IMG/VR virus record: IMGVR_UViG_3300045988_091674
Direction: 5' to 3' (one strand)
DNA from: a virus
Length of the DNA stretch: 64,000 nt
Positions 2,608-57,377 of this stretch are shown piece by piece. A program made the translations under genes and the position numbers. Numbering within the stretch: the stretch's first letter is position 1; every line of letters starts with the position of its first letter. Under the pieces are notes generated by a model, which saw only the letters and a program-made list of their open reading frames with translations, was not told where the DNA came from and searched no databases.

Positions 2608-3234
2608 TCAATCAGGAGTAATATCATCAAAAATTACAGGAATCTTTTCCTTGACTTTATTCAAACCGAGGATTGCAACTTCTCTCATTTGTGGATGCGC
2701 GGCTGGAGAGCAACGAAGCTTGAAGAAATGTCGCCACTCACGCAAGTCCGCAGTCATAACTACCTCAGTTTTTAAACTATTAGGCAGAACTGCTCTTGCT
2801 TCTTGTGGAGTGCAGCCTTCGAACAAAAGCTCAAAATATTTTTTTTCAGATTCCGCACAAGACATTTCCCATAGTATATATTTTGAACTATTTGGTTCAA
2901 GATAACAAGGTTCAATTACCGTAATTTCATTTCCAAATCCATCTTTTGAGTAATTACAATATCTCGTAGATTCCTAACAATAAGCTGCCAATCTATGGCG
3001 TACAATTTCATGACTTACGCCTCTATCGCAAATAAATTTAAGGGTAAAAGAACAATGCTCAAGAACCGCCTCATGGCCTCTCTTGATAATATTCTATACG
3101 AATTTTACAGCGCTATCTTCTGTAATTTTATCCTCGGATTTATAACATACTCTACCACACTATTCAATTCGTTTAAGGATTGTTTCACCATCAATAGGTG
3201 TAATAAGTTCAACATCTGGCTTAATAATCTTCAT
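2608..3234 (-). CDS. thyX: flavin-dependent thymidylate synthase ThyX, three in-frame TAG codons
   Basis: Codon-by-codon translation from ATG at 3234 gives 209 aa. ThyX signature HEIVRHRLAAYCQESTRY, and C-terminal ARAVLPNSLKTEVVMTADLREWRHFFKLR. TAG at 2974-76, 3094-96 and 3160-62. Ends in TAA. The ORF track shows only the C-terminal 85 aa. Confidence 0.8.
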
Positions 3235-3236
3235 AA

Positions 3237-3515
3237 TTATTCCTCACTTAAATTATATCCAATAAGTTTCATAGAAGGGTTTATCAATCGCAATAATGTT
3301 TCTGCTTCATCTATTACAATCTTATCCTTCATTCCTCTGCTGTGATTTAAATATTCTGAATAATTCATAAATCTAAGTCCAATAATTCCATAACTTTCCG
3401 CTTTACTTCTCATTGAGTGAGGGTTACTACATACGAATATAGCATTATTATCCTTAGCGTATTGCATTAACTGATAAGTTTTTCCAGTGCATCTATCACC
3501 AATAATTCTAAACAT
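3237..3515 (-). CDS. small P-loop protein (Walker A GDRCTGKT, Walker B VIDEAE)
   Basis: 92 aa. TAA stop is 2 nt before the ThyX ATG. NTP-binding motifs only. Confidence 0.4.
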   Translation of the reverse strand: MFRIIGDRCTGKTYQLMQYAKDNNAIFVCSNPHSMRSKAESYGIIGLRFMNYSEYLNHSRGMKDKIVIDEAETLLRLINPSMKLIGYNLSEE

Positions 3516-3919
3516 TAAGCTCCTCCTTTAGTTCCATTAAGACCTAATTCTTTAGTCTTATAGAACTCAATCCAATAGGTTTCTCTCTCGTTTAGTTTGT
3601 CTCTGGTTACTTCTTCTAAGACTTCAAACACGAAATTATGAACTCCAGATTTCTGCATAGCAGAGTATAACTTATTAGTTACCTTTCCATAGGTTAAAGC
3701 AGATTTAATATGCTATCTAAATCGTTCTTTTATATCAACCGATTGTCCAATATAGGACTTGCCTGTAGTTAAATCAGTTATTCTATAGATACCGCAATAT
3801 TTAACTGCCTTGGGAAACAAATGGGCCATTAAAATATCATAAGCTGGCTTATAATATACTTCCCATATTAGTTTATCTATACTTTCTTTCTTTACAAATC
3901 TTGGTTGTAATTCGCGCAA
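3515..3919 (-). CDS. GIY-YIG homing endonuclease with in-frame TAG
   Basis: CGIYRITDLTTGKSYIGQSVDIKERFR, then TAG at 3713-15, then HIKSALTYGKV...ETYWIEFYKTKELGLNGTKGGA ending in TAA at 3515-17 and overlapping the next ATG. N-terminal extent is uncertain. Confidence 0.6.
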
Positions 3920-4468
3920 TAACGTAATATCATTAATATCTATTTCATCAAGAGCAAGACGATAATAATCTTGATTAGAGTCAATTTCTTCCTATCTCTA
4001 TTTGGCCTAAATATAGGAAAGCTACTTAGCCTATAAATCAGCTAATTTCCCGGCTTCAATAGAAATTTTCTTTAGCAAATCTTGATTTTTAGCATCAAAA
4101 GTCAAAGAAAGTTCCTATTCTTTTTCTTTGTAGGATTTTACAAGTGCGGAGACGCGTGCCCAATAGGCTTCATCAGCTTGTTTCTAAGCACTTTCCCGCA
4201 TTTCTTCCTAAGATTTTAATAAAGAAGAAAGAATATCGTTCTCAAATGTTATATTATTTTTTATGTTAGATAACACTTCTCTATTATGTGCTATTTCTTT
4301 TTCTATTTCAGCGTTTTTTCTTTGATTATCTGTGTTAATCTAAACTACTTCAAGGGTTTGCTTTTTGAGATAATAGATATAAATTATTAACCCGATTATA
4401 GCTATTAATAATAATCCTATAATCATAATTAAAAAATCGGGAAGAGTTAAAACTCTTCCCGATAGACA

Positions 4469-5042: not shown

Positions 5043-6131
5043 TTATTTAAAAATTTCATCTATGAGACAGTCTTTAGCATCCTTATCATCCCTCATACAT
5101 TTGAAAACAGGGTGTCGTAGGGTATGATCTTTTCTATTGATGGACATACAATCAAGAGCTACTACGTGTCCAACAAAGTTTCCTGGAAACTCTGTCATTA
5201 GCCTTTTCATATCATCCGTAATACCTGAGCTAACTGTGCCAAGATCAACTAAATTATTATCATTATCGTATGCTCCAATTTTAATAGCTGATTTCCAGCC
5301 ATTATAATAGTATTTAGTTATTGGAACATACCCTTCCGTGATTAAGTCTCCTTTAGGTACAGCATCAATAAAATCACATAGCTCACCATCAGGACTTTCC
5401 CAATATGGCCATGTATCTAGCTCTTTCCCAGTGTATTCCTTTGTTGGAGGACAGAGACCTGTGCAAACTAAATCAATAGAATCCATTTGTTTGACTTTTA
5501 CTGTAGACCAAGCTGGACGTTTACCCGGAGTATATGGATAATCCTTTTTCTTTAAAACAGCTCCTTCTCCTCCAGAGTTTAAGATTTTAGAAATCTCTTC
5601 TTCAAGATTTTCAGTAATCTTTAGAGCCAATTTCAAGAAATCATATTGAGATAAATTATGTCTATTCCATACACCAGTAAGAATCTTATATCTATCTTCT
5701 GCGCCCAGATTAATTAAGTTAATTCCATCATACTCAATTATATCATGTATATAATAATGAATTGGATTATTTGCTTGTCTTTTAACAGCTAGTTCTGGTA
5801 AACATCCCATAACAGTTGTTACTGTTTTAGAAGTACACCCAGGGTAATATATTTCTCCTATTAAAATTGTATTAGGAGGCATACAATCAAGAGCTTCCAT
5901 AATATGGGGAACATTAGCTCCTTTTTCGGAGAGCAGCCCTGTTGTGGTACTGGTATTTCGCGAAAAAAGATAGCTATAATTCTCTGTTTTTTCATACTCA
6001 TACCAATAGCCGTCAATCTTTTCTTCTAGGAAGTAGTCTCCAGACTGGCAAATTTCTGAAAGCATAGATTCTTTTCCAGAAGGAAGTTTCCATACCTTCA
6101 TTGCATCTATCATTTTAGCTTCAGGATACAT
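5043..6131 (-). CDS. ATP-dependent ligase (DNA ligase-like nucleotidyltransferase)
   Basis: 362 aa. Motif I EEKIDGYW (KxDG), motif IV GGEGAVLKKK, motif V VKVKQMD. Size is close to T7-type DNA ligases. Confidence 0.6.
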   Translation of the reverse strand: MYPEAKMIDAMKVWKLPSGKESMLSEICQSGDYFLEEKIDGYWYEYEKTENYSYLFSRNTSTTTGLLSEKGANVPHIMEALDCMPPNTILIGEIYYPGCTSKTVTTVMGCLPELAVKRQANNPIHYYIHDIIEYDGINLINLGAEDRYKILTGVWNRHNLSQYDFLKLALKITENLEEEISKILNSGGEGAVLKKKDYPYTPGKRPAWSTVKVKQMDSIDLVCTGLCPPTKEYTGKELDTWPYWESPDGELCDFIDAVPKGDLITEGYVPITKYYYNGWKSAIKIGAYDNDNNLVDLGTVSSGITDDMKRLMTEFPGNFVGHVVALDCMSINRKDHTLRHPVFKCMRDDKDAKDCLIDEIFK

Positions 6132-6432
6132 TAATCAAACTCCTCATAATAAACATACACTCCCAAAAACGCCCCGATAGGAATTGCGTAGAGGAGTATA
6201 AACCAAACACTAACTTTAATCATTAGAATAAGTGGTAATGCAATAGAAATCATTATTACAAATAATATAACAATACCCGCTAGAGCAAAGAGAGCAATCT
6301 TTTTTTAATTTATCTCTATCGTCCATACTATAACCTTTCTTATTATAATATTACTTTTATTATATATAATATTATATTCTTATTAAAAATAAAAGTCAAC
6401 TAAAGATAAGAGTAGCAAAGCTACTCTTATCT

Positions 6433-8796
6433 TTAAATCTTAGATGTTGAAATTATTTGCTCATTATCTTTCAGCATAATATTTCCCATAGAAGTTCTAT
6501 TTAACAAAGGAAAATCTGACACTTTAATAACTATAGAAGTTTTATTTCCAGAAATTAAAATCAGATCATCATCATTCACTAACTCTGCACCCGAGATAGC
6601 ACCTTTATAACAGGAGATGCCCTTTCCTCCACGGTTTTGCAATGTAAATTCTTTTAACTCAACCTTTTTTCCTAATCCGTTAGAAGAAACAATAGCCAAA
6701 TATTTAGATTGGTCGATAGGCAATGCTGCAATTACATAATCATCTTCTGCAACATTCATGCCCTTAACTCCTTGCGCGGTTCTGGAAGAAATTGGCATTT
6801 CCGCAGTTGGGAATCTAATAACCATACCATTCTTTGTAACTAACATCATTTCCTCTTGATTGATAAATGTGATTGAAGAAAGCTCGTCGTTTTCTTTTAG
6901 CTTAATAGCAACGATACCGGTTCTCTTCATTGCATCATACTCTTCTAAGGGAACCTTTTTAATAATTCCTCGTTTTGTAGCAAAGAATATAAACTTTTTA
7001 TCTGTATCTCTTGCTAAAGTAGTATAAGCAATAGGAACTTCATTATCTTCAAATTCAATAATTGCTGATAACGGAGTGCCAACAGAAGTATTAGTTCCCT
7101 CGGGAATATTATCAACAAGGACACGATACATTTTTCCTTTTGAAGAAAAGACCATCAACATATCTTGTGTATTGGTTTTTTGTGAAAATACTGTAATATC
7201 TCCATTGGTCTTTACCCCAGTAGTATTTCTCTTCTGAGACTTAAAATTCTTTATATCTATTCTTTTTACGGTATTCTTTTTTGTTACTATTACCATACAG
7301 TCTTTGGCTTCTACTACTACTTGCTCTTTCTCAGCCTTAGGAATATCGGTATTTAGAAGTTTTGTTCTTCTGGCATCACCATATTTATCTCGAAGTTCTT
7401 TAATTTTAGCAGTAAGTTTAAGATTTCTAACTTCTTGCTTTGTTAGAATTTCTACACATTGAGCAATAAAACTTCTCTTTTCTTGAAGCTCATTTATTAA
7501 TTCATCCTTATCAATTCTTGTAAGTTTTCCTAATTTCATATCCAAGATGGCACCAGCTTGAATATCATCAACAGATAAGAACTCAATCAACTTTGCTTTC
7601 GCATCTGCCCTTCCCGCAGACTGCTTAATTAAACTGATTACTTCATCAATTTTATCAACTGCGGCGATTAGCCCTTCAAGAACGTGTGCTCTTGCTTCGG
7701 CTTTCTCTTTATCAAATTTAGTAGCGCTAATTAATACAGTCTCTTGATGTTTAATGTATTCTTTAAGCAAATCCAGCATTGAGCATAATTTAGGAGTTCC
7801 ATTTACAATATAATTCATATTGTATGATAGAGTAGATTGTAAATCAGTTAGCAGGAATAAGGTATTAAGAGCTTTAGAAACAGATACACCAGATTTTATA
7901 TGGAATACTAACTTATTTTGCCCAATATTGGATTCATCATCGAAATCATCCAATAGCTCACTAAATGTGTCTATATTCTTTTCAATTTGCTCCTTTATCT
8001 TGTTTCTGTAAGTTCGATAAGGGATACTTGTAAAGGTAATTGTTTGCCCATCTATCTCATAGTCGCCTTGAATTTTAAGAGAGATTTTTGATTTTCCAGT
8101 TTCAAATGCGGACTTTATATCTTTGATATTTAGGACAGTTCCGCCAAGAGGGAAATCTGGCCCGGGCATATAAGAAAGCAATTCATCAATAGTAAGATCG
8201 CCCTTTTCGATTAGAGCAATGGCTGCGTTACATACCTCTGTTAAATTATGCGGGGCTGAATTATGCGCCATAGAAATTCCGATAGCTTGTCGTCCGTTAC
8301 AGATAGCATTAGGAAATAAAGAAGGAAGAACTACAGGTTCCATAAATTCTCCATTATAAGTTTCTTTAACTGGAACGACTTCCTTCTTGTAGTCATTCAT
8401 CATTAAATCAGCAAATAATGAAGGTTTAGCCTCTGTATAACGAGAGGATGAAAACATATCATTATTTTCTTGAGTTCCCAGTTGCCCCTGACCTGTAATC
8501 AGTGGGTATCTCATTAAAAATGATTGAGCCATTTTTCTCAAAACGCCATAGCAAGCTATATCACCATGGAAGTAAGATGTTGCAAGAGTAGAGCCAACAA
8601 TAGCATTACACTTTTTTGTTTTACTCTTATTATCCATCTTTAAATAATCTTCCATAGTCCAAAGAATTTTTCTTTGGGCGCTTAGAAGTCCATCTTCTGC
8701 GGCTGGGATAGCTCTATCAGTAAGAACCTCTTCTGCATAAGTTAAGAAGTTTTCTTTAGCTTCATCAAGAATATCAACTTCAGTAATTAAACTCAT
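6433..8796 (-). CDS. type II DNA topoisomerase subunit A (GyrA/ParC-like)
   Basis: 787 aa with no TAG. Active-site-region motifs RYTEAKPS and ISMAHNSAPHNLTEV are like GyrA. Confidence 0.8.
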   Translation of the reverse strand: MSLITEVDILDEAKENFLTYAEEVLTDRAIPAAEDGLLSAQRKILWTMEDYLKMDNKSKTKKCNAIVGSTLATSYFHGDIACYGVLRKMAQSFLMRYPLITGQGQLGTQENNDMFSSSRYTEAKPSLFADLMMNDYKKEVVPVKETYNGEFMEPVVLPSLFPNAICNGRQAIGISMAHNSAPHNLTEVCNAAIALIEKGDLTIDELLSYMPGPDFPLGGTVLNIKDIKSAFETGKSKISLKIQGDYEIDGQTITFTSIPYRTYRNKIKEQIEKNIDTFSELLDDFDDESNIGQNKLVFHIKSGVSVSKALNTLFLLTDLQSTLSYNMNYIVNGTPKLCSMLDLLKEYIKHQETVLISATKFDKEKAEARAHVLEGLIAAVDKIDEVISLIKQSAGRADAKAKLIEFLSVDDIQAGAILDMKLGKLTRIDKDELINELQEKRSFIAQCVEILTKQEVRNLKLTAKIKELRDKYGDARRTKLLNTDIPKAEKEQVVVEAKDCMVIVTKKNTVKRIDIKNFKSQKRNTTGVKTNGDITVFSQKTNTQDMLMVFSSKGKMYRVLVDNIPEGTNTSVGTPLSAIIEFEDNEVPIAYTTLARDTDKKFIFFATKRGIIKKVPLEEYDAMKRTGIVAIKLKENDELSSITFINQEEMMLVTKNGMVIRFPTAEMPISSRTAQGVKGMNVAEDDYVIAALPIDQSKYLAIVSSNGLGKKVELKEFTLQNRGGKGISCYKGAISGAELVNDDDLILISGNKTSIVIKVSDFPLLNRTSMGNIMLKDNEQIISTSKI

Positions 8797-8813
8797 TATT
8801 CCACCACCATCAT

Positions 8814-10703
8814 TTAATCAAAATTAAATCCAAGCTCATTGGCATTGTCATAAATATATTGCTTTCTAGGTTCAACTGCACTACCCATAAGGACATTTAA
8901 TAGCTTTGTAGCCTCTTCTGCATCAGAGATAGTGATTCTCTTATATCTTTCGTTCATGAAGCAAACTTTCTGCAAATCTTCTGGATTTAATTCTCCGAGT
9001 CCTTTTGCTCTTAAAATATCATAAGAGCCATTATGACTTTTTTTCCACTCTTCTAGCTCATCGTCAGAGTAACAGTAGTATTCGTTTCCTCTTTGGCGAA
9101 CAATATATAAGGGGGTTACAGCTCGATATAGCTTACCTGCCTCTACCAATGGACGCATATAAGTAAAAAAGAATGTAATAAGCATTAGCTCAATATCTGC
9201 TCCATCGCTATCAGCATCAGCGGTAATAACTACTTTATCAAAGTTTATCTTTGATACATCAAAAGAAGTACCAAATCCACCACCTATAACTCTAACTACA
9301 TCAGACATTTCTTGGTTAGATAAAATCTTCTCTATGGCAGTTTTCAAGGGAGAAATAATTTTACCTCTTAGCATATAAATACAGTCTGTTTTTGGATTGC
9401 GGGCTTCTACGGCAGAAGCGCCAGCAGACAAACCCTCTACGAGAAGTAAATTTCGCTCTTTGGGATTTTTGTTTATGCAATCAATAAATTTATTACTAAT
9501 TTGCATTTTTGCCTTTAGTCCATTTTCTTTTTTAGGCTTTAATCCTCTGGCTGCTTCTCTAGCTTTTCTGGCTGCTTCTCTAGCTTTACGCGCATTAAGC
9601 GCCTTGTCCGCGATTCCTTTTATATCTTTTTCGTTTGCTGCAAACCAATATTGCAATTCCTCTGCTATTGCTTGCGTAAATGGTTTCATATCAAGTTTTG
9701 TGATTCTTGACTTAACCTGTGCGTCGTAGGCTACATTGGGGGCGGTAATATTAAAGACGAGATACATTCCTTCTTGACAGTCTTCGCCAGTAAGATTATC
9801 GTCTTTTTCTTTTAACCACCCTTTTTCACGGAAAAACTTATTCATTTCTCTTGTTAAAAGGGTTTTAATTTGCGTAATATGTGGACCTGTTTCTGTTAAA
9901 CCAGTATTAACATAAGGAACAATGGTAGAAGAATAATTATTTGTATAAGTTAGAGCTAAATCCAACTTATTTTTAGCTTCGGAAAAATTAATTGATAGAC
10001 GATTTTTTAAGATCTCTTTCCCTTTAACGGCCTCGTCTAGTAAATCCATTAGACCATTCTTTGAGAAGAATTCTGTTTTTTCTCCGTTGTTATCGAGCTT
10101 GATAGTTAAACCCGGACAGAGACATACAATAGTTTTAAACAGTTCAGTTAGAGCCTTTACATCTGGACGAGGATCAGTGAAAAACTCCTCGCTTGCTCTC
10201 CAGAATACAGAAGTTCCATGAATATTTTTATCAACCTCAGTAGAATCTCTATCTGCGAAAACTCCCTCATTAAAAGTGATTCGCTCTCCCTGTCCATCTC
10301 TATATGTTGTAACAATTAATTCGTGACTGAGATAAGTAGCGAGTTTACTACCGATACCAAAGCTACCTAAAGAAGTACCTTCATAAGTTCCATCTTCTCT
10401 ATATTTTCCGCTTGTGTTTAAAACACTAAAAGCAGCTTCAAGAATTGTCTTTCCATCTTCTCTAAAAGAATTTGGAATGAATCCTTGTCCCTGATCACCA
10501 ACTGTGACTCTTGCTCCATGGATTTCTACTGTGATTAAATTTCCATGACCTAATCTAAATTCATCAACAGCATTAGAGACAATCTCTACAACTAACTGCG
10601 TGGAAGTAGATGTGTCTCCGCAATAAACTCCGGGTCTTAAACGAGTAAATTCAAGAGGAGAAAGAGATTCAATACTTTTTTCATCATATAATTTTCCAGC
10701 CAT
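8814..10703 (-). CDS. type II DNA topoisomerase subunit B (GyrB/ParE-like ATPase plus toprim)
   Basis: 629 aa. Toprim EGLSAGASA...LRGKI, GHKL ATPase-like N-terminal domain. Lies immediately upstream of the A subunit. Confidence 0.8.
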   Translation of the reverse strand: MAGKLYDEKSIESLSPLEFTRLRPGVYCGDTSTSTQLVVEIVSNAVDEFRLGHGNLITVEIHGARVTVGDQGQGFIPNSFREDGKTILEAAFSVLNTSGKYREDGTYEGTSLGSFGIGSKLATYLSHELIVTTYRDGQGERITFNEGVFADRDSTEVDKNIHGTSVFWRASEEFFTDPRPDVKALTELFKTIVCLCPGLTIKLDNNGEKTEFFSKNGLMDLLDEAVKGKEILKNRLSINFSEAKNKLDLALTYTNNYSSTIVPYVNTGLTETGPHITQIKTLLTREMNKFFREKGWLKEKDDNLTGEDCQEGMYLVFNITAPNVAYDAQVKSRITKLDMKPFTQAIAEELQYWFAANEKDIKGIADKALNARKAREAARKAREAARGLKPKKENGLKAKMQISNKFIDCINKNPKERNLLLVEGLSAGASAVEARNPKTDCIYMLRGKIISPLKTAIEKILSNQEMSDVVRVIGGGFGTSFDVSKINFDKVVITADADSDGADIELMLITFFFTYMRPLVEAGKLYRAVTPLYIVRQRGNEYYCYSDDELEEWKKSHNGSYDILRAKGLGELNPEDLQKVCFMNERYKRITISDAEEATKLLNVLMGSAVEPRKQYIYDNANELGFNFD

Positions 10704-11165
10704 TTATTCACCATACTCTCTTAAAATTTCTTCTTTAGTCATTCTTTCAGTGGCTAACGCGTCGGCTAGTTCATTATAAAGCTCACCATCATGACCTTTA
10801 ATTTTTCTTAGATCAATCTTGTAATCTTGTCTTAGCATATCATAAATTTTAATTAAATCAAGATTTTCAAGTTTCTTTCCGCCTGCGCGTACCCATCCAT
10901 TTGCTTTCCAGCTATTTATCCATGAATTGAAACTATTTACACAATAAGAAGAATCGCTATAGACTATTGGGACAAAGAAATCTCCCTCTTTTGCGCCATA
11001 GTGTTCTAGCGCATATATAATAGCTTTCATTTCCTCTCTATTGTTTGTAGTTTGTGGTTCACGCTCTGAGTAAGCGTCTATAACGACATCATTATCAACT
11101 ACAATAACTCCAAAACCTCCTGGCCCAGGATTACCTAGGCAAGAACCATCGGTATATATAGTCAT
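10704..11165 (-). CDS. rnhA: ribonuclease H (RNase HI)
   Basis: 153 aa. TDGSCLGNPGPGG, conserved E, D and H catalytic context, and C-terminal NELAD. Confidence 0.85.
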   Translation of the reverse strand: MTIYTDGSCLGNPGPGGFGVIVVDNDVVIDAYSEREPQTTNNREEMKAIIYALEHYGAKEGDFFVPIVYSDSSYCVNSFNSWINSWKANGWVRAGGKKLENLDLIKIYDMLRQDYKIDLRKIKGHDGELYNELADALATERMTKEEILREYGE

Positions 11166-11261: not shown

Positions 11262-11300
11262 AATGGGATAAATACCCATTAAGCCTTTATATTAAATAGG
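11262..11300 (-). terminator. rho-independent terminator after the lysis cassette
   Basis: Hairpin aaaggcttaatgggtatttatcccattaagccttt followed by a T-rich tract on the minus strand. Confidence 0.6.
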
Positions 11301-11348
11301 GCCATCGAGATCAATAGGAATATCATTAGATGCCGAAAAATCTTCTGT

Positions 11349-11633
11349 CTAAACAGTATATATAGATGCGGAATTAGATTCAATTTCTTTTAAAGCTAAA
11401 TCGTAGGTTATTCCACCCTTTTTATGATCTGATTTAGCCATCGTTAGATAGAAGGAGCAAACTATACCATGAGCACTCCATGGTAAACCTATAAGAGCAC
11501 TAATCCATGGCAAAGTCCCCAAATAACCCATATAGACGCACATAAATGCTAAAAGTATTCCTGATATGGTTATAATCCACAATAGCAAGCGAATATCATT
11601 TATGAGCTTCTTAGAAAATTCTATCTTTTTCAT
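11349..11633 (-). CDS. holin-like membrane protein
   Basis: 94 aa with two hydrophobic segments. Starts 2 nt after the endolysin TAA. Confidence 0.5.
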   Translation of the reverse strand: MKKIEFSKKLINDIRLLLWIITISGILLAFMCVYMGYLGTLPWISALIGLPWSAHGIVCSFYLTMAKSDHKKGGITYDLALKEIESNSASIYTV

Positions 11634-11634
11634 C

Positions 11635-13041
11635 TTAAAGTCCTAGCTTTTCCGCCAATCTTCTAATCATAGTTACTGTTTCTAATCTAGTACAGAATTT
11701 GTTTGGCATCATTCTTCCAGCGCTGTCGCCGGCCATAATTCCATTTGTCTTAGCCCATTCGAGATTATCGGAACCCCATGTCTCTTTTTCATTAGCTTTA
11801 TTGGTTAGCCAAGTATTCATAAGCTCAGCGAATTTTTCATCAGTCATATCTTCATCATCCTCCTAAATATTTGTCATTAGGTTATAAACGTCTGTTCTTG
11901 CTGTTTCCATGCTTTTTCCAAATTTTGGAAACCAATGGTTTACATCTGCATGGTTAGAACCTAATCCTAGTTTATGACTATCAGCATGACATAAAATGGT
12001 TGGAACAGTGATACCATTTAAAGTAGTCGTTCCTAATGGATTTATGTTATACATCTTACATAAATAGGCAGTAATCTAACAAGCTTCTTCATAAATCTTA
12101 TTAAAATAGTCTGCATTATTTAAACCATCTTCGCAAATTTCAAACTAAATCCATCCATTATTACAAGAGCCTTTAGTTCCAGAACCACATCCCCAAGGAC
12201 GATAATTCCATGGCATTGTCTATATTGTTGTTACTGTTCCATCTGCTAGCTTGCCAATCCAGCAATTTAGCCCAGCTTGAATAGATACATGATTCCAGTC
12301 ATTTTTACTTGTATTCTTTCCTATTTTACTTATTAAAGTATTATAGTTGGGATCATTATCGCTAGGTTGAACATATCTTTTTAAATTAGGATTATTCGCG
12401 CCTGTACTATGCCATAAAATTCCTTTAACTTGCATAGTGCGTGTCTATTTATAGCAAGTGCTATTAGTCATCATGCATTGAAGTGGTTTATTGCTATCAC
12501 TATATTTCATTTTATTACCTCCTTCAATTATATTTGAAATATTAGCAAATTTATTATAATACTATTGACCATAACTTGTTCTCTTTTGTTGCATATAAAT
12601 ACTCTAATCCGCAGGTTTTTCAAACTAAATCAATACTGCCGTAGATGCTACTTCAACAGAAACGGCAGAAATTAAAATATTAACTAAAGAAGAAAAACTT
12701 GTAACTAACTCCTAATATAAAAAATCTAATTGGGTGTTTAAATCTCCAATAGATCTTCCACGATTTTGACAGAACTAAAGTAGATTTTGTTTTCTGCTCC
12801 AGAATGTCCATTGAGCTAGGCCATAGCCGGCTCCGTCTTTTACAAAGTTTTTATACCTTCCATCATCAACTGCGGAGGTATATCCTGCGTCGGTCATTTT
12901 TAATTTTTTTTCATAGGTGTTCTATAAGTTAATAGAATTAAGACCACTTTCGGCATAAAGATTACCCATTAAACCGGCAATTCCGCAATCACTAAAACCT
13001 TTGCCTTTAAAATATTTCCAAATAATTTGAGCATTAGTCAT
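11635..13041 (-). CDS. three-domain endolysin: phage tail-type lysozyme domain, amidase-like domain and C-terminal SLH domain; about 11 in-frame TAG codons
   Basis: Codon-by-codon translation from ATG at 13041 to TAA at 11635-37 shows no TAA or TGA in frame. N-terminal GIAGLMGNLYAESG...GAGYGLAQWT (Phage_lysozyme2-like), central ILWHSTGANNP...CHADSH...NHADVNHW, and C-terminal SLH-like WAKTNGIMAGDSAGRMMPNKFCTRLETVTMIRRL. An internal GGAGG-ATG sits at 12510. Confidence 0.75.
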
Positions 13042-13043
13042 TT

Positions 13044-13898
13044 TTATTTTTTTGTAATGAAAGAGCTATATCCAGCAGATTTTAATTTATCTTTTAGTCT
13101 TTCTGCATTTAATTTCACAGAGAAAGCACCTAATTGAACTTTATAAAAAATTCCTACTTTCTTGACATACCCGCTAAATCCTTTCTCTTCCAATTCCTTT
13201 AACATATTCTCTGCATTGGTTTTAGATAGAAATGCTCCTACTTGAACTCTGTAAAGAACTACCTCTTGTTCTTTCTTAAAATATACACACATTACATTAT
13301 CAACTGATCTTGCATAAATTTGAGAAGTTTTTCTTTTCCCATCTATTAGTAATCTAGTAGATCCGCCTCCATCTAAATTAATAGCATATTCTACTTTCAA
13401 TTCAAGAAAAATTTGCTATAGGGCAGCATAAACAAGACCTGGAGAATCTACGGTTACAATATAATAATTATTTTTATTCCATCCAATACAAGTCCTGCGG
13501 GCTTTATAATCTAATTCTTTTCCATCTGTTATAACTACTTTTTTGCTATCTACAATTAATGCAGGATAAGCTGCGATAAAATCTCTAGCGGTTTCATAAT
13601 CTTTTAATGTTGTATATATAAGTGTTTTATTGCCGCTAATTGCAACTCCATGACGAAAATCAGACTAAATAACAGTTCCTTCGTCTTTATAACTAAAGCA
13701 GGTGTTGCCATTATTCATGGCAAAGAAACCTCCATTAGTAATAATATCTGGTTTAGTAGCCTGTCTTTTATAATAAGCATCTGGAGTTTCCGTCGGTTGA
13801 TTGCATAAGGCAAAGTCAATTTTTTCAATGTCTGTGAAGGGAATTGTTACAATTTGAACATAAGAATAGAGACTATGTTTTTTGATACTATATCCCAT
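13044..13898 (-). CDS. cell-wall binding protein: DUF2233-like (phosphodiester glycosidase-like) domain plus two SPOR repeats; in-frame TAGs
   Basis: ORFs 13665..13898 and 13044..13400 join in frame through TAG codons. INLDGGGST motif, then YRVQVGAFLSKTNAE and YKVQLGAFSVKLNAE SPOR repeats. TAA stop at 13044-46. Confidence 0.6.
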
Positions 13899-16121: not shown

Positions 16122-16808
16122 TTAATTATTGTTTGGATGTATTATGAAGGTACTCGTTTCTAATAGCAAATCTTTAAGTTCTATATCTTGATAATGCGTA
16201 TATGGAATGCGAATTATTGGGATGTTATTATCGAAGCAATAGTTATTCTTTTCAGTATCTCGAATTTGTTGACTTTCTTTTGTATGAATTTCATTTCCCC
16301 ATTTGCTATCCTAGAAATGCTATTTTCCATCATATTCTATAACATATTTATCCTATATAAAGAAGTCATATCGGAATAATGTACCATAAAAAATTTTTTC
16401 TTTAACAAAAGGAATTTTAGCATCTCGTAGTATTTCTGCAATCTTTTGCTCACCTAGAGATTTTATACATCCACAGCTTTTTGTATTTTCTTGTTGTAAA
16501 GAATTACCAGACACAATAATGGTATTTCCACAATCGCATTTGCACTTCCAATAACTTTTTGTTGATCCGTTTGGATTTTTCTTAGTGCCATTAAATTCTA
16601 TCACTGTTAATAATCCAAACTTCTATCCAACAAGATTTTTTAAATTATCATGTCCAGTTTTCTTTGCCGCTTCTTTTTGTAAGCATCCACAGCTCTTTTT
16701 ATGGCCAGATTTAAGGTCTGCGCTAGACGCATAAGTTTCATTTCCACAAGAGCATTTACATCTCCAAATAACTCCACCTCTATGATCTCGCTGCTTTGTT
16801 TCTTCCAA
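16122..16808 (-). CDS. zinc-ribbon-repeat endonuclease-like protein (paralog 1), four in-frame TAGs
   Basis: ORFs 16623..16808 and 16353..16604 are in frame, separated by TAG. Two WxCxCxCGN...SCGC zinc ribbons, then YDFFI-TAG-DKYVIEYDGK-TAG-HF... (PD-(D/E)xK-like). True stop is TAA at 16122-24. Confidence 0.6.
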
Positions 16809-16905
16809 GACGGTTAATTGATTAAATTGCTAACCAACTAAATTTATTTTTTTACCCAATTCAATCACCTCTAATATTAGTAAATGTTAGAGTAGATAAA
16901 TTAAA

Positions 16906-36132: not shown

Positions 36133-36207
36133 TGGCAGCGGAGGTGGGATTCGAACCCACTCCCGAGGTTTTAGAGACCCCTGCGCTAACCATTACGCTA
36201 CTCCGCA
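36133..36207 (-). tRNA. amber suppressor tRNA (anticodon CUA), tRNA-Trp-like scaffold
   Basis: Anticodon stem ggggt/acctc, loop CUCUAAA giving anticodon CUA, T-arm gtgggttcgaatcccac, CCA encoded. Loop and T-arm are nearly identical to the window's tRNA-Trp (47063..47138). Confidence 0.75.
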
Positions 36208-39007: not shown

Positions 39008-39569
39008 TTTAGTCTACTGCTGTCCCACAGTTTAATATTAAAGTAAAACCTTCAACATCCACTATTTTATCAAGTCCTACAGAATTAATTTCTCCGGTTC
39101 CATCTGAAAGTATTTTTATCTAGTTATTCTAACTACTCCCCTTAATTAAACCAAGATTTTCTTCTGTTCCCGCCGGAATAGTAACTTTATTATCTTCAAC
39201 CGGCAAATCTTTATTTCCGATAGAGATAGTTTCTATTACTTTATCCTAAGATATTGGAGTATACCACTCTAATGTGCCATCTTCTCTTTTTCTAATAGAT
39301 TGCCCTGTTGATGCTTCTGCAAATCCTTTTAATGAAATCTGTCCAATTCCATCAATAACAATAGATTGATTGTCTACATCAACATTTACCAAACTACTAT
39401 TTATATATTTTAACTATTTCCACTCGGTGGCTCCATCTCCAATTTTTAACTTTCCAGTATCTATTTCAAATCCCGGCTCACCTTGACGAAGAATTGGATT
39501 TAATTCGGTCCACTTCTCTGATGTTCCTCGCTTGAACTAAAATATTGTTTTATAAACAACTTCAGCCAA
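39008..39569 (-). pseudogene. tail fiber paralog with a +1 frame break near codon 30 (TTG start)
   Basis: TTG at 39569 with RBS AAAGGAGGG. After ...ILRQ the reading needs a 1-nt skip at the plus-strand caccc tract (39479-82) to continue as GEPGFEIDTGKLKIGDG... to TAA at 39008-10. Carries TAG codons as well. Confidence 0.4.
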
Positions 39570-39583: not shown

Positions 39584-39841
39584 TTAGCCAATTAGTCCGC
39601 CATCATAAATAATAGTTGTATCTTCTGGAGGAAGAGGCTAATCTCCGCCTCCACCAGAGGGCTACAACACCCATTCATGATCAGAATTGAGAATATATTT
39701 ATTTCCATTTTCAATTACATATGCCGAACTGCCTGGCTTTCGGTTTGTAGGGAGATTAGCAACATCACTTTGGTAATCACATAAAAAATGAATCGCGCCA
39801 TATATAATTTTATTGGCTGTATTTTTACCAACAGTAATCAT
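39584..39841 (-). CDS. Gly-rich small protein, two in-frame TAGs
   Basis: ATG at 39841. ...VLQPSGGGGDQPLPPEDTTIIYDGGLIG then TAA. Confidence 0.4.
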
Positions 39842-41443: not shown

Positions 41444-41848
41444 TTAGATTCGAACTAAGTATTTACTGGTATCCAATTTACAATTTGGGGCACTGGTTGT
41501 TCTCAAAGTTATTGATTTTACATTTCCAGCTTGAATCAAATCGTTCATTGGAATTACAAACATATTCATATCTTGATTAGCGCAAAACAACAAGTCTAAA
41601 GGATGGTTAAGTATCGAATCATAAACATTTCCTTTAGTTCCACCTGCGGATTTTAGATTAATTTCTCCAGTTTTCGATGATGTAAATTTGCACTAAACTG
41701 TTTGGAAAACTCCATCTTTTTCAATAACTAAATCATACCATTGAGTATCATTCAGTGGGACTGATACAGTGTATCCATTAGAACCAAAGTATCCTATTGC
41801 TAAAGATAGACCAGCATTTCCTTTCTACTGATTGTTTGTAATGACCAT
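41444..41848 (-). CDS. hypothetical protein with in-frame TAG
   Basis: RBS AGGAGG then ATG at 41848. Read with TAG as sense, ends in TAA at 41444-46. Not in the ORF track. Confidence 0.4.
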
Positions 41849-42101: not shown

Positions 42102-42187
42102 ATAATGCACATTTTTATGCTGAGTTGCGCTTCTCACCTTTCTCTTCTTCTTCCCCGACGGATGAAAGTATCTTCGGCATATTCGGT

Positions 42188-42307: not shown

Positions 42308-43188
42308 TATTAAAAACGATTTTGGTTAAGGTTAATCGTGAACCTTGTCAGTGTGCTACTACGCCAAAGGCGAGTCCTGCAGGTCTACTCGCCACTCTTT
42401 GAATGGTGGACGCTTTCAATCCTACATCCTGACAATAGAAGTCTTATTTACGATTTCTATACGTATTGCTTCTATTACTGGCACCGCTTCTTCGTGTTGA
42501 ACGAAGACCTCTTGGTTCAGAGCCAAGCGTGCAGACCGCTACACTAAAGCGGTATAAAGAAAATAGAATAACTTAAATATAACTATAATGCGGGCCTTCG
42601 CCCTACCAACTGTTTAATCTTCATCTATATTCAACCATTGAGGAGACAAGTCTGAGCTTCGAGGAGCGACCTCTAACTTCTTGCCCCAGAACTTTTGTTC
42701 CATTTCTCAAAAGGGATTGATTACCCTTACCTTTCACCCGTCATTCAGAAATTTGATTTTAGAACAAGCAATATCTTATTATCTAATCATCAAAGTCTTT
42801 GCACATTTGGGCTACTCAGATCATGACCTTATCTTATACCCAGATTTCTCTGGTTCAAGTGCAAACTCTCTTGTTGGCATTTCCAAGGATTGCCAAAGTT
42901 GCCACACTTTAACCTAACTTGGATTATTCCCCACAGGGGCGTCTATTGCGAGAGCGATAAGACAGTGTTTTTAGATGCGATTATGTCAGCACAACCCTCC
43001 TAGGAGCCGGTCATTCGACCACGAGAACTCTAATGTCACCATTAAAGCCCATTACGGATGGTTGGGGTATCCTCCATTATCCGATTCTCCCAGCCTAAGC
43101 TCGGATTGGGTTTCTCAGCCACATGACGTTGTGTCTTCACTGAGTTGCATTATAGCCATATCTAAGTTATTCTATTTTCAAGGTACAG

Positions 43189-43262
43189 TGGCAGCCGGTA
43201 GAGGAGTCGAACCTCTAACAAAGGAGTCAAAGTCCCCTACGTTACCATTACGCCAACCGGCT
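43189..43262 (-). tRNA. tRNA-Gln (TTG)
   Basis: Loop CUUUGAC. Anticodon stem has G-U pairs. Confidence 0.55.
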
Positions 43263-45202: not shown

Positions 45203-45337
45203 AAACTTCCTTTCCTCTTGTTATGTAAATTATTCTATCTTGAAAAATTCTTCTTCAAATTTAAGTTTTTGCTATTTTATTTCTTCAGAATATCTTCCAT
45301 TTCTAGGAGTTAAGCGTATATAGTCTTTAATTATTAA

Positions 45338-45631
45338 CTAAGCTCTAGCTTTTTTCTTTGGTTCATTAAGATAACTGACAATCTCTTCTAATAAAGAAAT
45401 AGCCTTTCTCCGCTCTATCTTCCAAATATAAGCCTGTTTCCATTTTGGATTACGCTCATTTTTCTTGGAAATAACTCCTCCAAAATGCTCTTTAAGATAT
45501 TCTACAATTTGATATGTTGTACTAGACACTTCTAATACTGGATACCTAAACTATTTATCCTTGGTGAGAGTAATACTTCCTTCACCATCAATAATGCCAG
45601 CCAAATATCCTCTTTCTAATTCTGTCATATT
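45338..45631 (-). CDS. LAGLIDADG homing endonuclease (single-motif type), one in-frame TAG
   Basis: RBS GGAGG then ATG at 45631. LAGIIDGEGS motif. TAG at 45551-53 joins the sequence to ORF 45338..45529. Confidence 0.55.
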
Positions 45632-50501: not shown

Positions 50502-50979
50502 CTTCGGCGTGCCTTAGTGATTATAGTGTGGATAGAATATCTTCAGCTTTAAAATCTTTAGCCTGCTTTTGAGTAGATAATCTTGTGGCAACAGTCCAAA
50601 ACTTAGTCTCTACTGTTCCAAAAACAGGGAACATATAAAACCTTCCATTAAACTCTGTCATAAAATAGTCTACATCTTTAGCAGAATAAGTCATTTTTTT
50701 AACTTTTCCATTTTCTCGCACTTCATATTTAGTACGAACAAGAAATCCAGTTTCCTCTACCGGCATAGCGTGTTTTACTTGAATTTTATAGAATTTGCCG
50801 TTCTTCTCTATCACTAAATCATACTTTTGATGATTTCCAATCGGAATAAGAACATTCCAACCATTCTCAATTAAATACGCCTAACATTTAAGCTCTGTAA
50901 TATCTCCAATCTGGGATGGATTTAATTTCTCCAATGCTATCAATCCTCCCTCTAAAGATATTCTCTATTAATCTCCAAG
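50502..50979 (-). mobile_element. putative self-splicing (group I-like) intron in the tRNA-Asp anticodon loop, carrying a 97-aa ORF
   Basis: Bounded by the tRNA halves. The U|...G| boundary nucleotides fit group I rules. ORF 50521..50814 lies inside. Group I core P-elements were not verified. Confidence 0.45.
50521..50814 (-). CDS. intron-encoded ORF (97 aa, unknown function)
   Basis: ORF located inside the intervening sequence of the split tRNA-Asp. No recognisable homing-endonuclease motif. Confidence 0.35.
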   Translation of the reverse strand: MIEKNGKFYKIQVKHAMPVEETGFLVRTKYEVRENGKVKKMTYSAKDVDYFMTEFNGRFYMFPVFGTVETKFWTVATRLSTQKQAKDFKAEDILSTL

Positions 50980-51650: not shown

Positions 51651-52172
51651 TTATGAAATCAAATCCTCAAGAGTTTTGAAATACTTCTCTTCATCAAATA
51701 AGATTGGCGTAAAATCATCTAAAGAAATTAGACCATTTTCAATTCTTCTGTGACAATTAGCACATAGCATTATACACTTTTTTGCTTCATCTGCATAAGC
51801 CTATTTACTTCTTGTAGTAGAAGAATTTGCGATACCAAAACTTTTTGTAGATGGGTCAACGTGATGAAAGTCGTATAACTGAGGTGCATCCCGCAATCCG
51901 CAGTAAGAGCATTTATGAGAAAAACCTTCCACCAATGCTAGCTTAATTCGTTTTCTAAAATTAACTACATTTTTTCCACTATTTTTCTTTAAATGCTACT
52001 TACATCCGCAGCTCTAAATAGCTCCAGAAGTTAAATGACCTGTCTAAACTTCTTTCTCGTTCCCACATTCACATCTACATAGCCAATATGTTTTACCACT
52101 TCTACTTGGAGCTTTTGAAACTGCTGTTAATGCTCCAAATTTTTGTCCAGTTAAATCCAACGCTGTCGGCAT
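51651..52172 (-). CDS. HNH homing endonuclease with N-terminal zinc-ribbon module, in-frame TAGs
   Basis: RBS AAAGGAGAG then ATG at 52172. MPTALDLTGQKFGAL...YWLCRCECGNE...SCGCK...DFHHVDP...CANCHRRIE. Ends in TAA at 51651-53. Not in the ORF track. Confidence 0.6.
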
Positions 52173-54005: not shown

Positions 54006-54953
54006 TTAATTACCCATACCCAAAAATCTTTCAATAATTTCTTGAATTTTTTCGTAATCTGTATAGGCGATTCTTAACAAAGGTATATTATGCTCTTTAG
54101 CATACTCAGTTTTTAAAGAATCTCTTTTTAAGTTATCCTCACTATACCACTAACTACTTGTATCAAAATGTTGCCTACCGTCATATTCAATTAACCCTAT
54201 AAGTCTTTCATTTTTGAAAATAGCAAAATCATATCTTAAATAAGATTTATCTTTTAAATCTTTAAATTTATATTCTCTTATAAAAGGTATATCATACTAA
54301 GTTAAAATTTCTGCTATCTTAGTCTCTCCGCGAGAATTTCCAATACATCCGCAACTCTGCGTATCATGATTCATCAGAGCACTACGGGATACTGTTTTTA
54401 TATTACCACAGTCACATTTACAAATCCAATATCTGTGATCATCTTCTGATCGTTTTAGAGCAGTTAATCTACCAAAACGCTATCCAGTAAGATCCCCTTG
54501 AGCTAAGCGCGTTTCAACTCCTATAGGCTAAACTATTTCTTTCATAATCTAGCCTGATATTTCTTTTTGTAGACATCCGCAAGATTTTTTAGCTCCGTTA
54601 TTTAATTCTGCGGTTTTTGCATAGGTTATATTTCCACAATCACACTAGCATTTCCAAAATACGGCAGTCCCAGTATGCGTTTGTTTCCACGAGTCTGTAT
54701 ATTCCTAGTCATAACCTAATACAGTTAATCTTCCAAATTTTTGTCCAGTTAAATCTTTCCTGTATAAAGTCCTAGAACATTTTGGACAAGAAGTTTTTGC
54801 TCCACTTGTCAACTAATTTGTTATAGTTATAACTTCATTTCCGCAGTCGCATTTACAAAGCCACTATGCTTTATTAGCTTTAGTGTTCTCTACTCTTTTA
54901 ATAACCAACAATTTTCCAAAACGCTATCCCGTTAAATCTTTTAATGGTGCCAT
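54006..54953 (-). CDS. zinc-ribbon-repeat endonuclease-like protein (paralog 3), multiple in-frame TAGs
   Basis: ATG at 54953. MAPLKDLTG-TAG-RFGKL, four WxCxCDCGN...SCGC repeats, C-terminal YDFAIF...IEYDGRQHF...RIAY. Ends in TAA at 54006-08. Length 948 nt, divisible by 3. Confidence 0.55.
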
Positions 54954-55337
54954 AAAATTCTCTCCTTTATCATATATCGTTTCAATAAATATAAAAATTA
55001 TTAAAACAGATATAATCAAAAGTGACCAGTTAAATAATATTTAATTTTCTTTTTAGCTCTTCGATCTTGGCCTTATCTTCAGGAGCTAACTCAGTAGGAG
55101 TAAACTCAGTTGCTGGTGCCCCTCCTGAGCTTGATGTAGAGGGCGCATTATCTCCACCACCCGCAATCGGTGTCTTTGGCATAGTAATAGAAACCGCAAA
55201 TTGAATTTTCTCTCCATTTACGCCATCTTGTGCCCACACATAGATTTTTTTATCTTGAATTCCAACAAAGTCTTCTCCAAAAGCCTTGCAAATTGTATCC
55301 ATTACATTTTGACGAGCTGCATCTCCACGTTTAGCCA

Positions 55338-56642
55338 TTATTCATCGTCCTCCTCGATTAATCTATCCTCTTGTTGCATTAGATTATGGCACTTTTTACA
55401 ATATGGTCTACCATCCATCCAATAAATTTCATCTTCATCATATATTCTACGATAACAACTATCACAAGTCAAAAAGAAATCTTCATCTGCCTCTTTTTCT
55501 GAAATACAATAGTCACAAAGAAATGAATCTTCACGTTTAATATGTTCAGTTCCACAGCATGGACAGATTGGCCGCTCTCCAATTTTAATTTCAAAAGCGT
55601 GATTGAAGAACATTTCCTCAACTTCTTTACCCTTGTCTATACTTTCAGCATATTCATGAAATTTGTCATCATTTACTGATATAATCGGAGCATATGTACT
55701 AGAGATAATTAAATCAGAATAGCCAAGATAGTCACTTGTATCAATCACGTCTCTAGCATCAAAAGTGCGTCCACCCGCGTTGATCTGATTATATGTAAGC
55801 ATCCCGCTACTCCATTGAGATTGGATTACTTTAAAGCCATAGTCAATCGGTTCAGTCATTTCATTTTTTATTAATGAAACTAACATACTATGGACACTAG
55901 ATAATAAATCTCTAGATTCATATGGATATTGTCTATTGTAGTAGATATTTCTTTCTCCATCTGTATGGACTAACATTCTCCATTTTTTGCTATTCCATGT
56001 CATTCCTTTTGGTAAACATTTTAAATATTCTCGTTTCCCATTTGATAGATATGCTACTATTGTAGTCTTATCTACTAAATAACTCAAATTTCCACTTCTA
56101 TAATCCCCGTCTAAAGATTGACATGACCACCAATTTTCATTATTCTCTGATATAGTAAGAAAATCAATAGGATGAACAGATAAATATAAATATCCTTCTA
56201 TTTTATTCTCTTGAATATATCTTGATGCTATATCTTGAGCCCATCTGACAATCTCATTACTATTAAGAAACTTTTTGAAAGATTTTGAGAGCTTTGATCC
56301 TAACGGAATATTAAAAGATGGATAAGGTAACATAACTTTATTATCAAAGAATCCATCTTTATTAACGCGCAAAAATAATTCAAATTCCTCTGTTAGAATC
56401 CCGTTTTCATCAAGAGCCTGTAAGAACTCTTCAAATCTTTTATCTCTCTGTTCTTCTGTTAAGAAAATTTTAACTGGTTCTTTACTCCTTAATACCAACT
56501 CTCCACCAAAAAGGTTGATTATATCCCTTTTAGCCTCTAACCATTGAGAAATCAAATTCTCCGAGTTTAAATAAAAGGGGTAATCCTGAGAATGAACAAG
56601 TATAGATTCAAAATCATTTTTTAATTCTCTTAAATCTATCAT
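55338..56642 (-). CDS. hypothetical protein with C-terminal Cys4 zinc ribbon
   Basis: 434 aa. CPCCGTEH...CDYC. Confidence 0.3.
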   Translation of the reverse strand: MIDLRELKNDFESILVHSQDYPFYLNSENLISQWLEAKRDIINLFGGELVLRSKEPVKIFLTEEQRDKRFEEFLQALDENGILTEEFELFLRVNKDGFFDNKVMLPYPSFNIPLGSKLSKSFKKFLNSNEIVRWAQDIASRYIQENKIEGYLYLSVHPIDFLTISENNENWWSCQSLDGDYRSGNLSYLVDKTTIVAYLSNGKREYLKCLPKGMTWNSKKWRMLVHTDGERNIYYNRQYPYESRDLLSSVHSMLVSLIKNEMTEPIDYGFKVIQSQWSSGMLTYNQINAGGRTFDARDVIDTSDYLGYSDLIISSTYAPIISVNDDKFHEYAESIDKGKEVEEMFFNHAFEIKIGERPICPCCGTEHIKREDSFLCDYCISEKEADEDFFLTCDSCYRRIYDEDEIYWMDGRPYCKKCHNLMQQEDRLIEEDDE

Positions 56643-56663
56643 CTATATGCTTTATCTCCCATC

Positions 56664-57377
56664 TTATAGAGTCCAGTCAATAGGTTCTCCTCCCATTGAA
56701 AGCAATAAACTATTCGCTGTTGAAAATGGTTTACTACCTTTAAACGAGGGAGTTCCCTTACATGGCTTACTTACACTAAAGGGACTTGGATGGGAGGATA
56801 AAATATAGGCTTTCTTAATTAAATTCTCTCTTGCTATTCCCGGACCGTCCCATACCATAGGACTAGAATTTAAATCCTTCAATAAATTCTGAGCATTAGC
56901 TCCCCATAGCATAAAAACAATAGGCTGCGGTAACTGGGTAGCAGCCTTTAATATTGCTGTTGTAAACTTATTCCATCCCCAATTAACGCAACTATTAGCT
57001 TGATGTTCATAAACGGTTAGACTCGCATTAATGAGTAACACTCCTCGTTCAGCCCAGGGCGTTAAATCTCCTGACTGCGGGATTGGCAGCCCTAAGTCGC
57101 TATTAAGCTCGCTAAAAATATTTCTTAAAGAAGGTTGAATTGGACTTCCATCAGAAATAGAAAACGCCAAACCGTTAGCTGCGCCTTGGGTATGATATGG
57201 ATCTTGCCCAACAATACAAACTTTTACATCTTCAGGACGCGTGAGATTAAGTGCTCGAAAAATTTTATCCTACTCTGGAAATAAAACTTTCCCTCTTGAA
57301 CGCTCTTCCAAAGCATAATTTTCAAGTTGAACACTCAAATTTAACGCGTCTTGAGGGAGAATTTCTGACCATTTCAT
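56664..57377 (-). CDS. ung: uracil-DNA glycosylase (family 1 Ung), one in-frame TAG
   Basis: The ORF track has only the C-terminal 168 aa (VVFMLWGANAQ..., HPSPFS). Extending upstream through one TAG gives MKWSEILPQDALNL...LFPE-TAG-DKIFRAL...VCIVGQDPYH. The TAG aligns with Q of Ung PPQ(K/E)DVF. Confidence 0.7.

Follow-up and report, generated by a model that had tools for sequence, protein, structure and literature searches.

Reassignment of the stop codon TAG to glutamine (Gln, Q) is known from gut phages of the Lak, crAss-like, Garnet, Amethyst, Agate and Topaz groups, in which lysis and structural genes are recoded and replication genes are variably standard-coded (Borges et al., bioRxiv 10.1101/2021.08.26.457843). 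The same study reports suppressor tRNAs in 35-40% of the alternatively coded phages and release factor 2 (RF2) only occasionally, and it assigns TGA-to-Trp recoding (code 4) to the Jade, Sapphire and some Agate phages. Metaproteomic verification of TAG-to-Gln recoding (genetic code 15) in gut phages is reported by Peters et al. (PMC9523058). Here, we analyzed a 64,000-nucleotide stretch of the IMG/VR virus record IMGVR_UViG_3300045988_091674 (hereafter the window), for which an original prediction, made from the letters alone, had proposed that TAG is translated as Gln in a large fraction of genes. Codon-level alignments, a positive log-likelihood for Gln and a phage-encoded tRNA with anticodon CUA (tRNA-CUA) support the code 15-type decoding; as to the large fraction, recoding was seen in 18 genes, and the 30 other genes of the window have no TAG.

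The window is part of a large phage, at least about 147 kb long, that is very common in the human gut. As in the code-15 gut phages, TAG clusters in the lysis and structural genes and is lacking in replication genes, a tRNA-CUA is encoded by the phage in a standard-code context, and termination stays with TAA and TGA. The gut source and the scattering of recoded modules over several islands are shared with the larger code-15 clades. Agate phages, reported at 154 ± 27 kb, resemble the present contigs (about 142-150 kb) in size only. In contrast to the described phages, more than half of the TAGs lie in homing-endonuclease-type genes here, and unlike in some of them, no RF2 was seen in the part examined (the window and its flanks). 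Accessory code-change genes (RF2 or an aminoacyl-tRNA synthetase) are present in some code-switching phages only, and neither was found in the window or flanks. Code 4 phages are similar in that a phage suppressor tRNA would unlock recoded late genes, but both codon and amino acid are different, and in the present phage TGA is a working stop and a tRNA with anticodon UCA is missing from the window. In every feature that could be tested, the phage agrees with the "early standard, late recoded" code-15 gut phages of Borges et al. and of Peters et al., a kind that is already well described.

Genes that carry TAG codons in frame

When TAG is read as sense, 71 in-frame TAGs fall into 18 minus-strand genes (4,433 codons) that end in TAA (16 genes) or TGA (2 genes). 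The genes are as follows.

2608..3234, minus strand: ThyX, 208 aa, 3 TAG, stop TGA (Pfam Thy1 11-191/191, E 5e-47)
3515..4426, minus strand: coiled-coil and GIY-YIG endonuclease, 303 aa, 10 TAG (Pfam)
11292..11633, minus strand: holin-like membrane protein with hydrophobic segments, 113 aa, 1 TAG, immediately downstream of the endolysin gene
11635..13041, minus strand: endolysin, 468 aa, 11 TAG (Pfam Phage_lysozyme2 2-140/140, Amidase_2 and SLH)
13044..13898, minus strand: second cell-wall enzyme, NAGPA phosphodiester glycosidase with SPOR, 284 aa, 2 TAG (Pfam)
16122..16859, minus strand: zinc-ribbon/DUF2726 homing-endonuclease-like paralog, 5 TAG, start codon uncertain
24339..25211, minus strand: zinc-ribbon paralog, 290 aa, 6 TAG, stop TGA
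25297..26571, minus strand: RNA ligase, 424 aa, 1 TAG (Pfam RNA_ligase), CAG at the TAG site in a close relative
37651..38988, minus strand: tail fibre, 445 aa, 3 TAG (Mtd_N), CAG/CAA at two of the TAGs in relatives
39009..39569, minus strand: second tail-fibre protein (Mtd_N), 5 TAG, start TTG or GTG after AGGAGG
39584..39841, minus strand: protein of 85 aa upstream of the tail fibres, 2 TAG, also 85 aa in public assemblies
41444..41848, minus strand: PD-(D/E)XK endonuclease, 2 TAG (Pfam)
45230..45628, minus strand: LAGLIDADG endonuclease, 132 aa, 3 TAG (Pfam)
50521..50934, minus strand: PD-(D/E)XK endonuclease, 1 TAG (Pfam)
51651..52172, minus strand: zinc-ribbon and HNH endonuclease, 173 aa, 4 TAG (weak HNH_2 match, E 5e-4)
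54006..54953, minus strand: triple zinc-ribbon/DUF2726 paralog, 315 aa, 10 TAG, including two in DLTG-TAG-RFG (DLTGQKFG in paralogs)
56664..57377, minus strand: uracil-DNA glycosylase (Ung), 237 aa, 1 TAG (Pfam UDG)
57445..58218, minus strand: unannotated protein, 257 aa, 1 TAG, also 257 aa in public assemblies

The original prediction had counted about 15 such genes between 2608 and 57377; the recoding stands, and the count becomes 18, with one gene (57445-58218) lying beyond that span. Its view that these genes become long, domain-complete open reading frames (ORFs) ending in TAA or TGA is borne out by the Pfam domains, which cross the in-frame TAGs as single unbroken stretches. The predicted three TAGs of ThyX and one of Ung were found in the translations and lie in genes with the expected Pfam domains, and TAGs were likewise found as proposed in the tail-fibre, RNA ligase, GIY-YIG, HNH and LAGLIDADG genes, the HNH match being the weak one listed above. 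The endolysin has 11 TAGs, where about 11 had been predicted, and its length is 468 aa instead of the predicted 469 aa. TAG accounts for 48% of its Gln-type codons. In ThyX, the TGA stop coincides exactly with the end of the Thy1 profile, all three TAGs lie inside the alignments with ThyX proteins of the PDB, and close relatives carry CAG and CAA at two of them. The holin-like protein had no match in family searches, and its position next to the endolysin suggests a holin role. In the zinc-ribbon paralogs, DLTG-TAG-RFG occurs twice as predicted, DLTGQKFG occurs in four copies instead of three, and NLVG-TAG-(Q/K)F occurs in two further copies. The ribbon position in W-x-C-x-C, for which K, R or Q had been proposed, shows K, R, E or TAG, so that K and R held and Q did not.

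Codon usage is altered in these genes: beside 71 TAG they contain 95 CAA and 31 CAG, whereas the TAG-free genes contain 152 CAA and 95 CAG, indicating that CAG is depleted where TAG is used. The nucleotide context following TAG showed no bias relative to that of CAA and CAG.

TAG is a sense codon and TAA and TGA are the stops

Among the 48 curated genes of the window, 37 stop at TAA, 11 at TGA and none at TAG, which would have a probability of about 4e-4 if TAG made up 15% of the stops. The recoded frames are interrupted by TAG alone, and the breakdown through additional TAA or TGA codons that would have spoken against recoding was not seen. Since ORFs bounded by TAA or TGA make this absence of other stops partly circular, we also ran a readthrough test that is independent of the ORF definition and measures the open stretch beyond the stop ending each standard-code ORF of 50 codons or more. 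The median open stretch on the coding strand was 29 codons for TAG stops, compared with 11 for TAA and 8 for TGA (Mann-Whitney p = 2.5e-4), and no effect was observed on the opposite strand (p = 0.19). ARAGORN found no tRNA with anticodon UCA or UUA in the window. TAA and TGA remain the only stops, in agreement with the earlier view that TGA is not recoded.

Two ORFs on the minus strand have unusual ends. A 161-aa ORF (46303-46791) ends in the tandem stop KGF-TAG-TAA, and a 63-codon ORF ends in TAG-GAT-TGA (42416-42424). These ends may be relics of earlier TAG stops with a second stop as backup.

TAG corresponds to glutamine in relatives

The amino acid was examined by codon-level alignment with 72 viral loci bearing relatives of the endolysin (52-91% identity) and with 14 strain variants of the same phage. 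TAG codons of the relatives were left out because public protein sets already render TAG as Q in recoded phages, which would make the comparison circular. The residues facing the TAGs of the window were mainly Gln (161), followed by E (52), G (35), N (29) and K (22). In a per-column, Codetta-like log-likelihood, the kind of code inference suggested as a check with the original prediction, Q was the sole residue with a positive value (+43.7 bits); the next best was K (-46), all other residues were at or below -46, and W reached -93. The same procedure returned the true residue for each of nine control codons. In three columns of the endolysin, Gln is invariant among 11, 44 and 49 distinct relatives, respectively, with only CAA, CAG or TAG as codons.

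Most of the endolysin-bearing loci have a standard-code signature. When only the TAG-free ORFs of standard-code relatives were considered, Q made up 69 of 153 aligned residues against a background of 3.1%, and again scored highest (+24.4 bits; next best N, -28.4). Among strains at least 80% identical, 24 of 33 TAG exchanges were with CAA (15) or CAG (9). Since CAA is two substitutions away from TAG, this pattern reflects meaning and not just mutational proximity. These comparisons support the decoding of UAG as Gln in a code 15-type manner.

Homolog alignment, the other check proposed, gave a divided result, with invariant Gln in three endolysin columns and variable residues where ThyX and Ung were compared with solved structures. 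The ThyX TAGs face F, R/E and Q/E, the homologs being too distant and the columns too variable to assign a residue. The TAG of Ung had been placed on a conserved Q, which was not upheld: of the five solved Ungs that match best, a single one has Q there and the remaining four show S, V, R and G, and the columns are too variable to decide. Since many columns are variable, single TAG positions such as that of Ung prove little. A deep protein search with the endolysin returned 7,554 relatives and was set aside as circular, because proteins of recoded phages already carry Q at TAG.

A suppressor tRNA behind a consensus promoter match

The tRNA that may read UAG and the elements compared with it are the following.

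36133..36207, minus strand: suppressor tRNA with anticodon CUA, which would read UAG, predicted from sequence and fold (ARAGORN; Rfam tRNA, 61.6 bits)
36651..36679, minus strand: candidate sigma-70-type promoter with the perfect consensus TTGACA-17-TATAAT and TG, about 445 nt upstream of tRNA-CUA
42479..43262, minus strand: ordinary tRNA-Gln genes, CUG at 42479-42553 and UUG at 43189-43262, flanking a ROOL RNA

tRNA-CUA forms a canonical cloverleaf with a 5-bp anticodon stem, a 4-nt variable loop and an encoded CCA, and it is 100% identical in eight strain variants (L079-L086). It has an unpaired U1.U72, G2-C71, G10, U35, A37 and the discriminator G73. A weak or open 1:72 pair together with the last five of these features are, we assume, the marks used by bacterial glutaminyl-tRNA synthetase. 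Both ordinary tRNA-Gln genes of the phage have A1-U72, a weak 1:72 pair, and G73. The amber suppressor supE (glnV) of E. coli is a tRNA-Gln with anticodon CUA that inserts Gln at UAG, and it shares U35, A37, G10, G2-C71, G73 and the weak or open 1:72 pair with the phage tRNA. On the other hand, the phage tRNA has U.U at 1:72, C-G at 3:70 and A38, its gene is the phage's own instead of a mutated gene of the host, and the host may form Gln-tRNA via GluRS and GatCAB.

Perfect TTGACA-17-TATAAT matches occur twice in the 64 kb, where 0.10 would be expected by chance, and the consensus match at 36651..36679 suggests that it acts as a promoter. A TAG-free ORF (36300-36638, 109-112 aa) lies between this match and tRNA-CUA. 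It encodes a Cys-rich protein and follows immediately on the perfect consensus match, and a very basic protein of 105 aa, also TAG-free, is found on the other side of the tRNA (35797-36638 for the pair, minus strand). Neither protein matched Pfam or PHROG. Both are likely co-transcribed with tRNA-CUA from the candidate promoter.

HDV-like or theta ribozymes are reported beside suppressor tRNAs in some gut phages (PMC10879173); between 35100 and 37700, Rfam gave no match to either at E ≤ 1. tRNA-CUA has an exact 22 nt in common with the nearby tRNA-Ser(UGA) (36866-36955, minus strand), covering the T arm and the 3' acceptor strand, which hints at recombination or duplication among phage tRNA genes.

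At 22454-22903 (minus strand), a free-standing, TAG-free protein resembles YqeY and the tail of GatB (Pfam YqeY, 2.6e-10; PHROG 1460, "tRNA amidotransferase"). We take this to be a tRNA-Gln-binding fold, and the protein could be a helper for making Gln-tRNA. A look at whether YqeY co-occurs with recoding yielded just 16 loci, which came without exception from related phages and whose code signatures were mixed. We also considered that tRNA-CUA with its U1.U72, the two flanking small proteins and possibly the YqeY/GatB-tail protein make up a novel code-change module replacing RF2 or a synthetase. Such a module, which we regard as improbable, could help to load the suppressor with Gln or weaken release factor 1 (RF1).

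TAG-free genes and the mosaic distribution of recoding

The 30 genes without TAG comprise 9,211 codons, and at the pooled rate the probability of finding no TAG among them is about 1.5e-21. They include gyrase, ligase, RNase H, PhoH, RNA repair and NAD salvage genes and a vault-like and TROVE-like pair. Three blocks stand out.

5043..11165, minus strand: ATP DNA ligase, GyrA, GyrB and RNase H, 0 TAG in 1,931 codons
16906..24255, minus strand: RNA/tRNA repair (Metallophos, AAA_33 kinase, Thg1), NAD salvage and YqeY
27970..35111, minus strand: Metallophos, RlaP, major-vault-protein-like and TROVE-like genes

The NAD salvage members of the second block are NadE, NAPRTase, a PRPP-synthetase-like protein and a nicotinamidase-type isochorismatase. 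The 71 TAGs, on the other hand, are confined to a few groups: 41 lie in nine endonuclease-type genes, 14 in the lysis cassette (11292-13898) and 10 in the tail-fibre genes, and the remaining six in ThyX, RNA ligase, Ung and one gene of unknown function. ThyX (3 TAG), Ung (1) and RNA ligase (1) are the exceptions to the TAG-free pattern of replication and repair genes. Recoding is a mosaic and not uniform, with two thirds of the examined coding capacity free of TAG, a trait shared with the code-switching phages in the literature. The distribution also suggests heavy recoding of the resident homing endonucleases.

The region 16906-30066 (minus strand) contains two dense TAG-free clusters, one for RNA/tRNA repair and one for NAD+ salvage, with the RNA ligase and its single TAG nearby. 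These clusters may work against defences of the host that act by tRNA cleavage or NAD+ depletion.

Proposed mechanism and alternative explanations

We consider it highly probable that the phage uses a code 15-type assignment of UAG to Gln by means of its own suppressor tRNA and keeps its replication genes free of TAG. In this mechanism, the phage would supply the amber-suppressor tRNA-CUA from a TAG-free transcription unit behind a host-type consensus promoter. The Gln-charged tRNA would compete with RF1 at UAG, and ribosomes could then finish the 18 TAG-bearing genes, which comprise the lysis cassette, tail fibres, homing endonucleases, ThyX, Ung and RNA ligase. Since tRNA-CUA carries Gln-type identity marks, charging would most likely be performed by the Gln-charging machinery of the host. 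The replication, NAD-salvage and RNA-repair genes lack TAG and should thus be translatable from the start in an unmodified host. The TAG-free gene set and the sigma-70-type promoters indicate that this host probably uses the standard code, and the split of TAG may serve as a timing device for the late and lysis genes.

Several observations weigh against this mechanism or parts of it. The case for this phage comes entirely from sequence comparison, and many single TAG columns are variable, with N, E, K or G in relatives. tRNA-CUA departs from what we take to be the identity set of E. coli tRNA-Gln at 3:70 (C-G) and 38 (A). A strong, constitutive-looking promoter is ill-suited to a delayed late switch, unless accumulation of the tRNA or competition with RF1 sets the delay. 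ThyX and Ung carry TAG though they are not classic late genes. In addition, neither a release factor nor a Gln-charging enzyme was found, and no release factor or aminoacyl-tRNA synthetase domain was detected in the window proteins or in the flanks (about 5.6 kb on the low-coordinate side and 6-7 kb on the other).

Decoding as another amino acid (Glu, Lys, Asn, Trp, Leu, Ser or pyrrolysine) might be suggested by the "Pyl" label that ARAGORN gives to tRNA-CUA, by the TAG columns in which N, E, G or K dominate in relatives, and by the tRNA itself, whose T arm and anticodon loop resemble the phage tRNA-Trp and which shares its 22 nt with a tRNA-Ser. However, ARAGORN applies that label to every CUA anticodon, all residues other than Q score strongly negative, and the invariant columns contain solely Gln. 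tRNA-Pyl has an atypical shape, whereas tRNA-CUA is a standard cloverleaf that scores as an ordinary tRNA, and no genes for synthesis or charging of pyrrolysine were seen among the window proteins. We therefore judge a residue other than Gln very unlikely. The view that the TAGs are true stops, marking pseudogenes, assembly or sequencing errors or deliberately shortened products, would fit the standard-code calls of GenBank TPA and IMG, which give just 40-117-aa fragments of the endolysin and ThyX. Yet only TAG and never TAA or TGA interrupts the frames, the domains are intact past each TAG, and TAG never terminates a gene. Moreover, the same TAGs recur in independent assemblies, exact full-length Q-translations being found on 259 contigs for the endolysin and at least 1,000 for ThyX, and a conserved cognate suppressor tRNA is present, all of which leaves true stops with barely any probability.

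A further explanation retains Gln and differs in what the TAGs do: suppression would be partial, and TAG would chiefly attenuate the dosage of toxic genes (endolysin and homing endonucleases) throughout infection, with no early/late switch. The concentration of TAG in the endonuclease-type genes and the lysis cassette slightly favours attenuation, as does the perfect consensus promoter upstream of tRNA-CUA, which suggests expression from the start of infection; the window and near flanks also yielded no RF2 gene or RF1 inhibitor. On the other side, TAG also occurs in structural tail-fibre genes whose products are needed in quantity, up to 11 TAGs in one gene would reduce the yield to a vanishing level unless suppression were efficient, and the published relatives are read as temporal switches. 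We regard a mainly attenuating role as unlikely, though not negligibly so. The attenuation and temporal-switch models are not mutually exclusive, and both retain TAG as Gln.

Consequences for annotation

Standard-code annotation breaks about one third of the genes of this phage. GenBank TPA and IMG hold the recoded genes as fragments, whereas another public gene call holds the exact Q-translations. Because the phage is widespread, correct coding is important when viromes are annotated, when endolysins are mined and when host range is studied through the tail fibres. The phage adds one more well-resolved case to the known pattern in which recoding of a stop codon may gate lysis and structural genes, and leaves knowledge of the genetic code itself unchanged.

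The phage and its strain variants

The window has 37% G+C, a negative GC skew over about 60 kb and nearly all genes on the minus strand. The genes assigned by Pfam are those of a large phage: GyrA/GyrB, ATP DNA ligase, RNase H and PhoH-PIN, ThyX and Ung, and an RNA/tRNA repair set (Thg1, RlaP, RNA ligase, AAA_33 kinase and three Metallophos proteins), in addition to the NAD salvage set, the lysis cassette, the tail fibres with Mtd_N and numerous genes of the homing-endonuclease type. Public assemblies contain the exact GyrB protein in 923 indexed blocks, on contigs of up to 290-293 kb, and the sample names indicate human-gut cohorts. The long contigs are mostly 142-150 kb, and a few reach 290-298 kb. 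The window had no DNA-level match in the GenBank phage collection.

Strain variants (L001-L006 and L079-L086, covering 3.5-55 kb of the window) differ chiefly in which endonuclease-type genes are present, of the zinc-ribbon/DUF2726, GIY-YIG and PD-(D/E)XK types. In some variants, a Band_7 gene takes the place of the zinc-ribbon gene at 16 kb, the NAGPA-SPOR gene is absent and the endolysin has 444 aa instead of 468 aa.

Other RNA and protein features

ARAGORN identified 30 tRNA genes from 35.2 to 52.9 kb, every one of them on the minus strand. Inside this array, between the two tRNA-Gln genes, lies a full-length ROOL RNA (42573-43168, minus strand; 350 bits, model 1-574/574). A tRNA gene with a 43-nt insertion in the anticodon arm (42187-42306, minus strand; Rfam 50.9 bits) is called Ser(gct) in the intron mode of ARAGORN and is absent from the standard run. 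A full-length tmRNA was matched by Rfam at 45715-46045 (minus strand; 71.6 bits, gathering threshold 47), with the LAGLIDADG gene directly after it, while ARAGORN found no tmRNA there, the excised region included. At 52651-52724 (minus strand), a 74-nt class-I tRNA has the anticodon UGA, for UCN Ser codons, and lacks a long variable arm. Its anticodon stem consists entirely of A and U, it has U1-A72 and G73, and recognition by seryl-tRNA synthetase would not be expected.

The vault-like pair lies at 30773-35111 (minus strand), and both of its genes are TAG-free. An 811-aa protein with major-vault-protein domains (MVP_shoulder 8e-18, Vault_3 and Vault) stands beside a 507-aa DUF2828/DUF7788 protein, which we take to be TROVE/vWA-like. 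In the GenBank phage set, the sole protein relatives of the vault-like gene are in three uncultured phages of 462-735 kb, at 38% identity. The vault-like gene is split or truncated in some strain variants.

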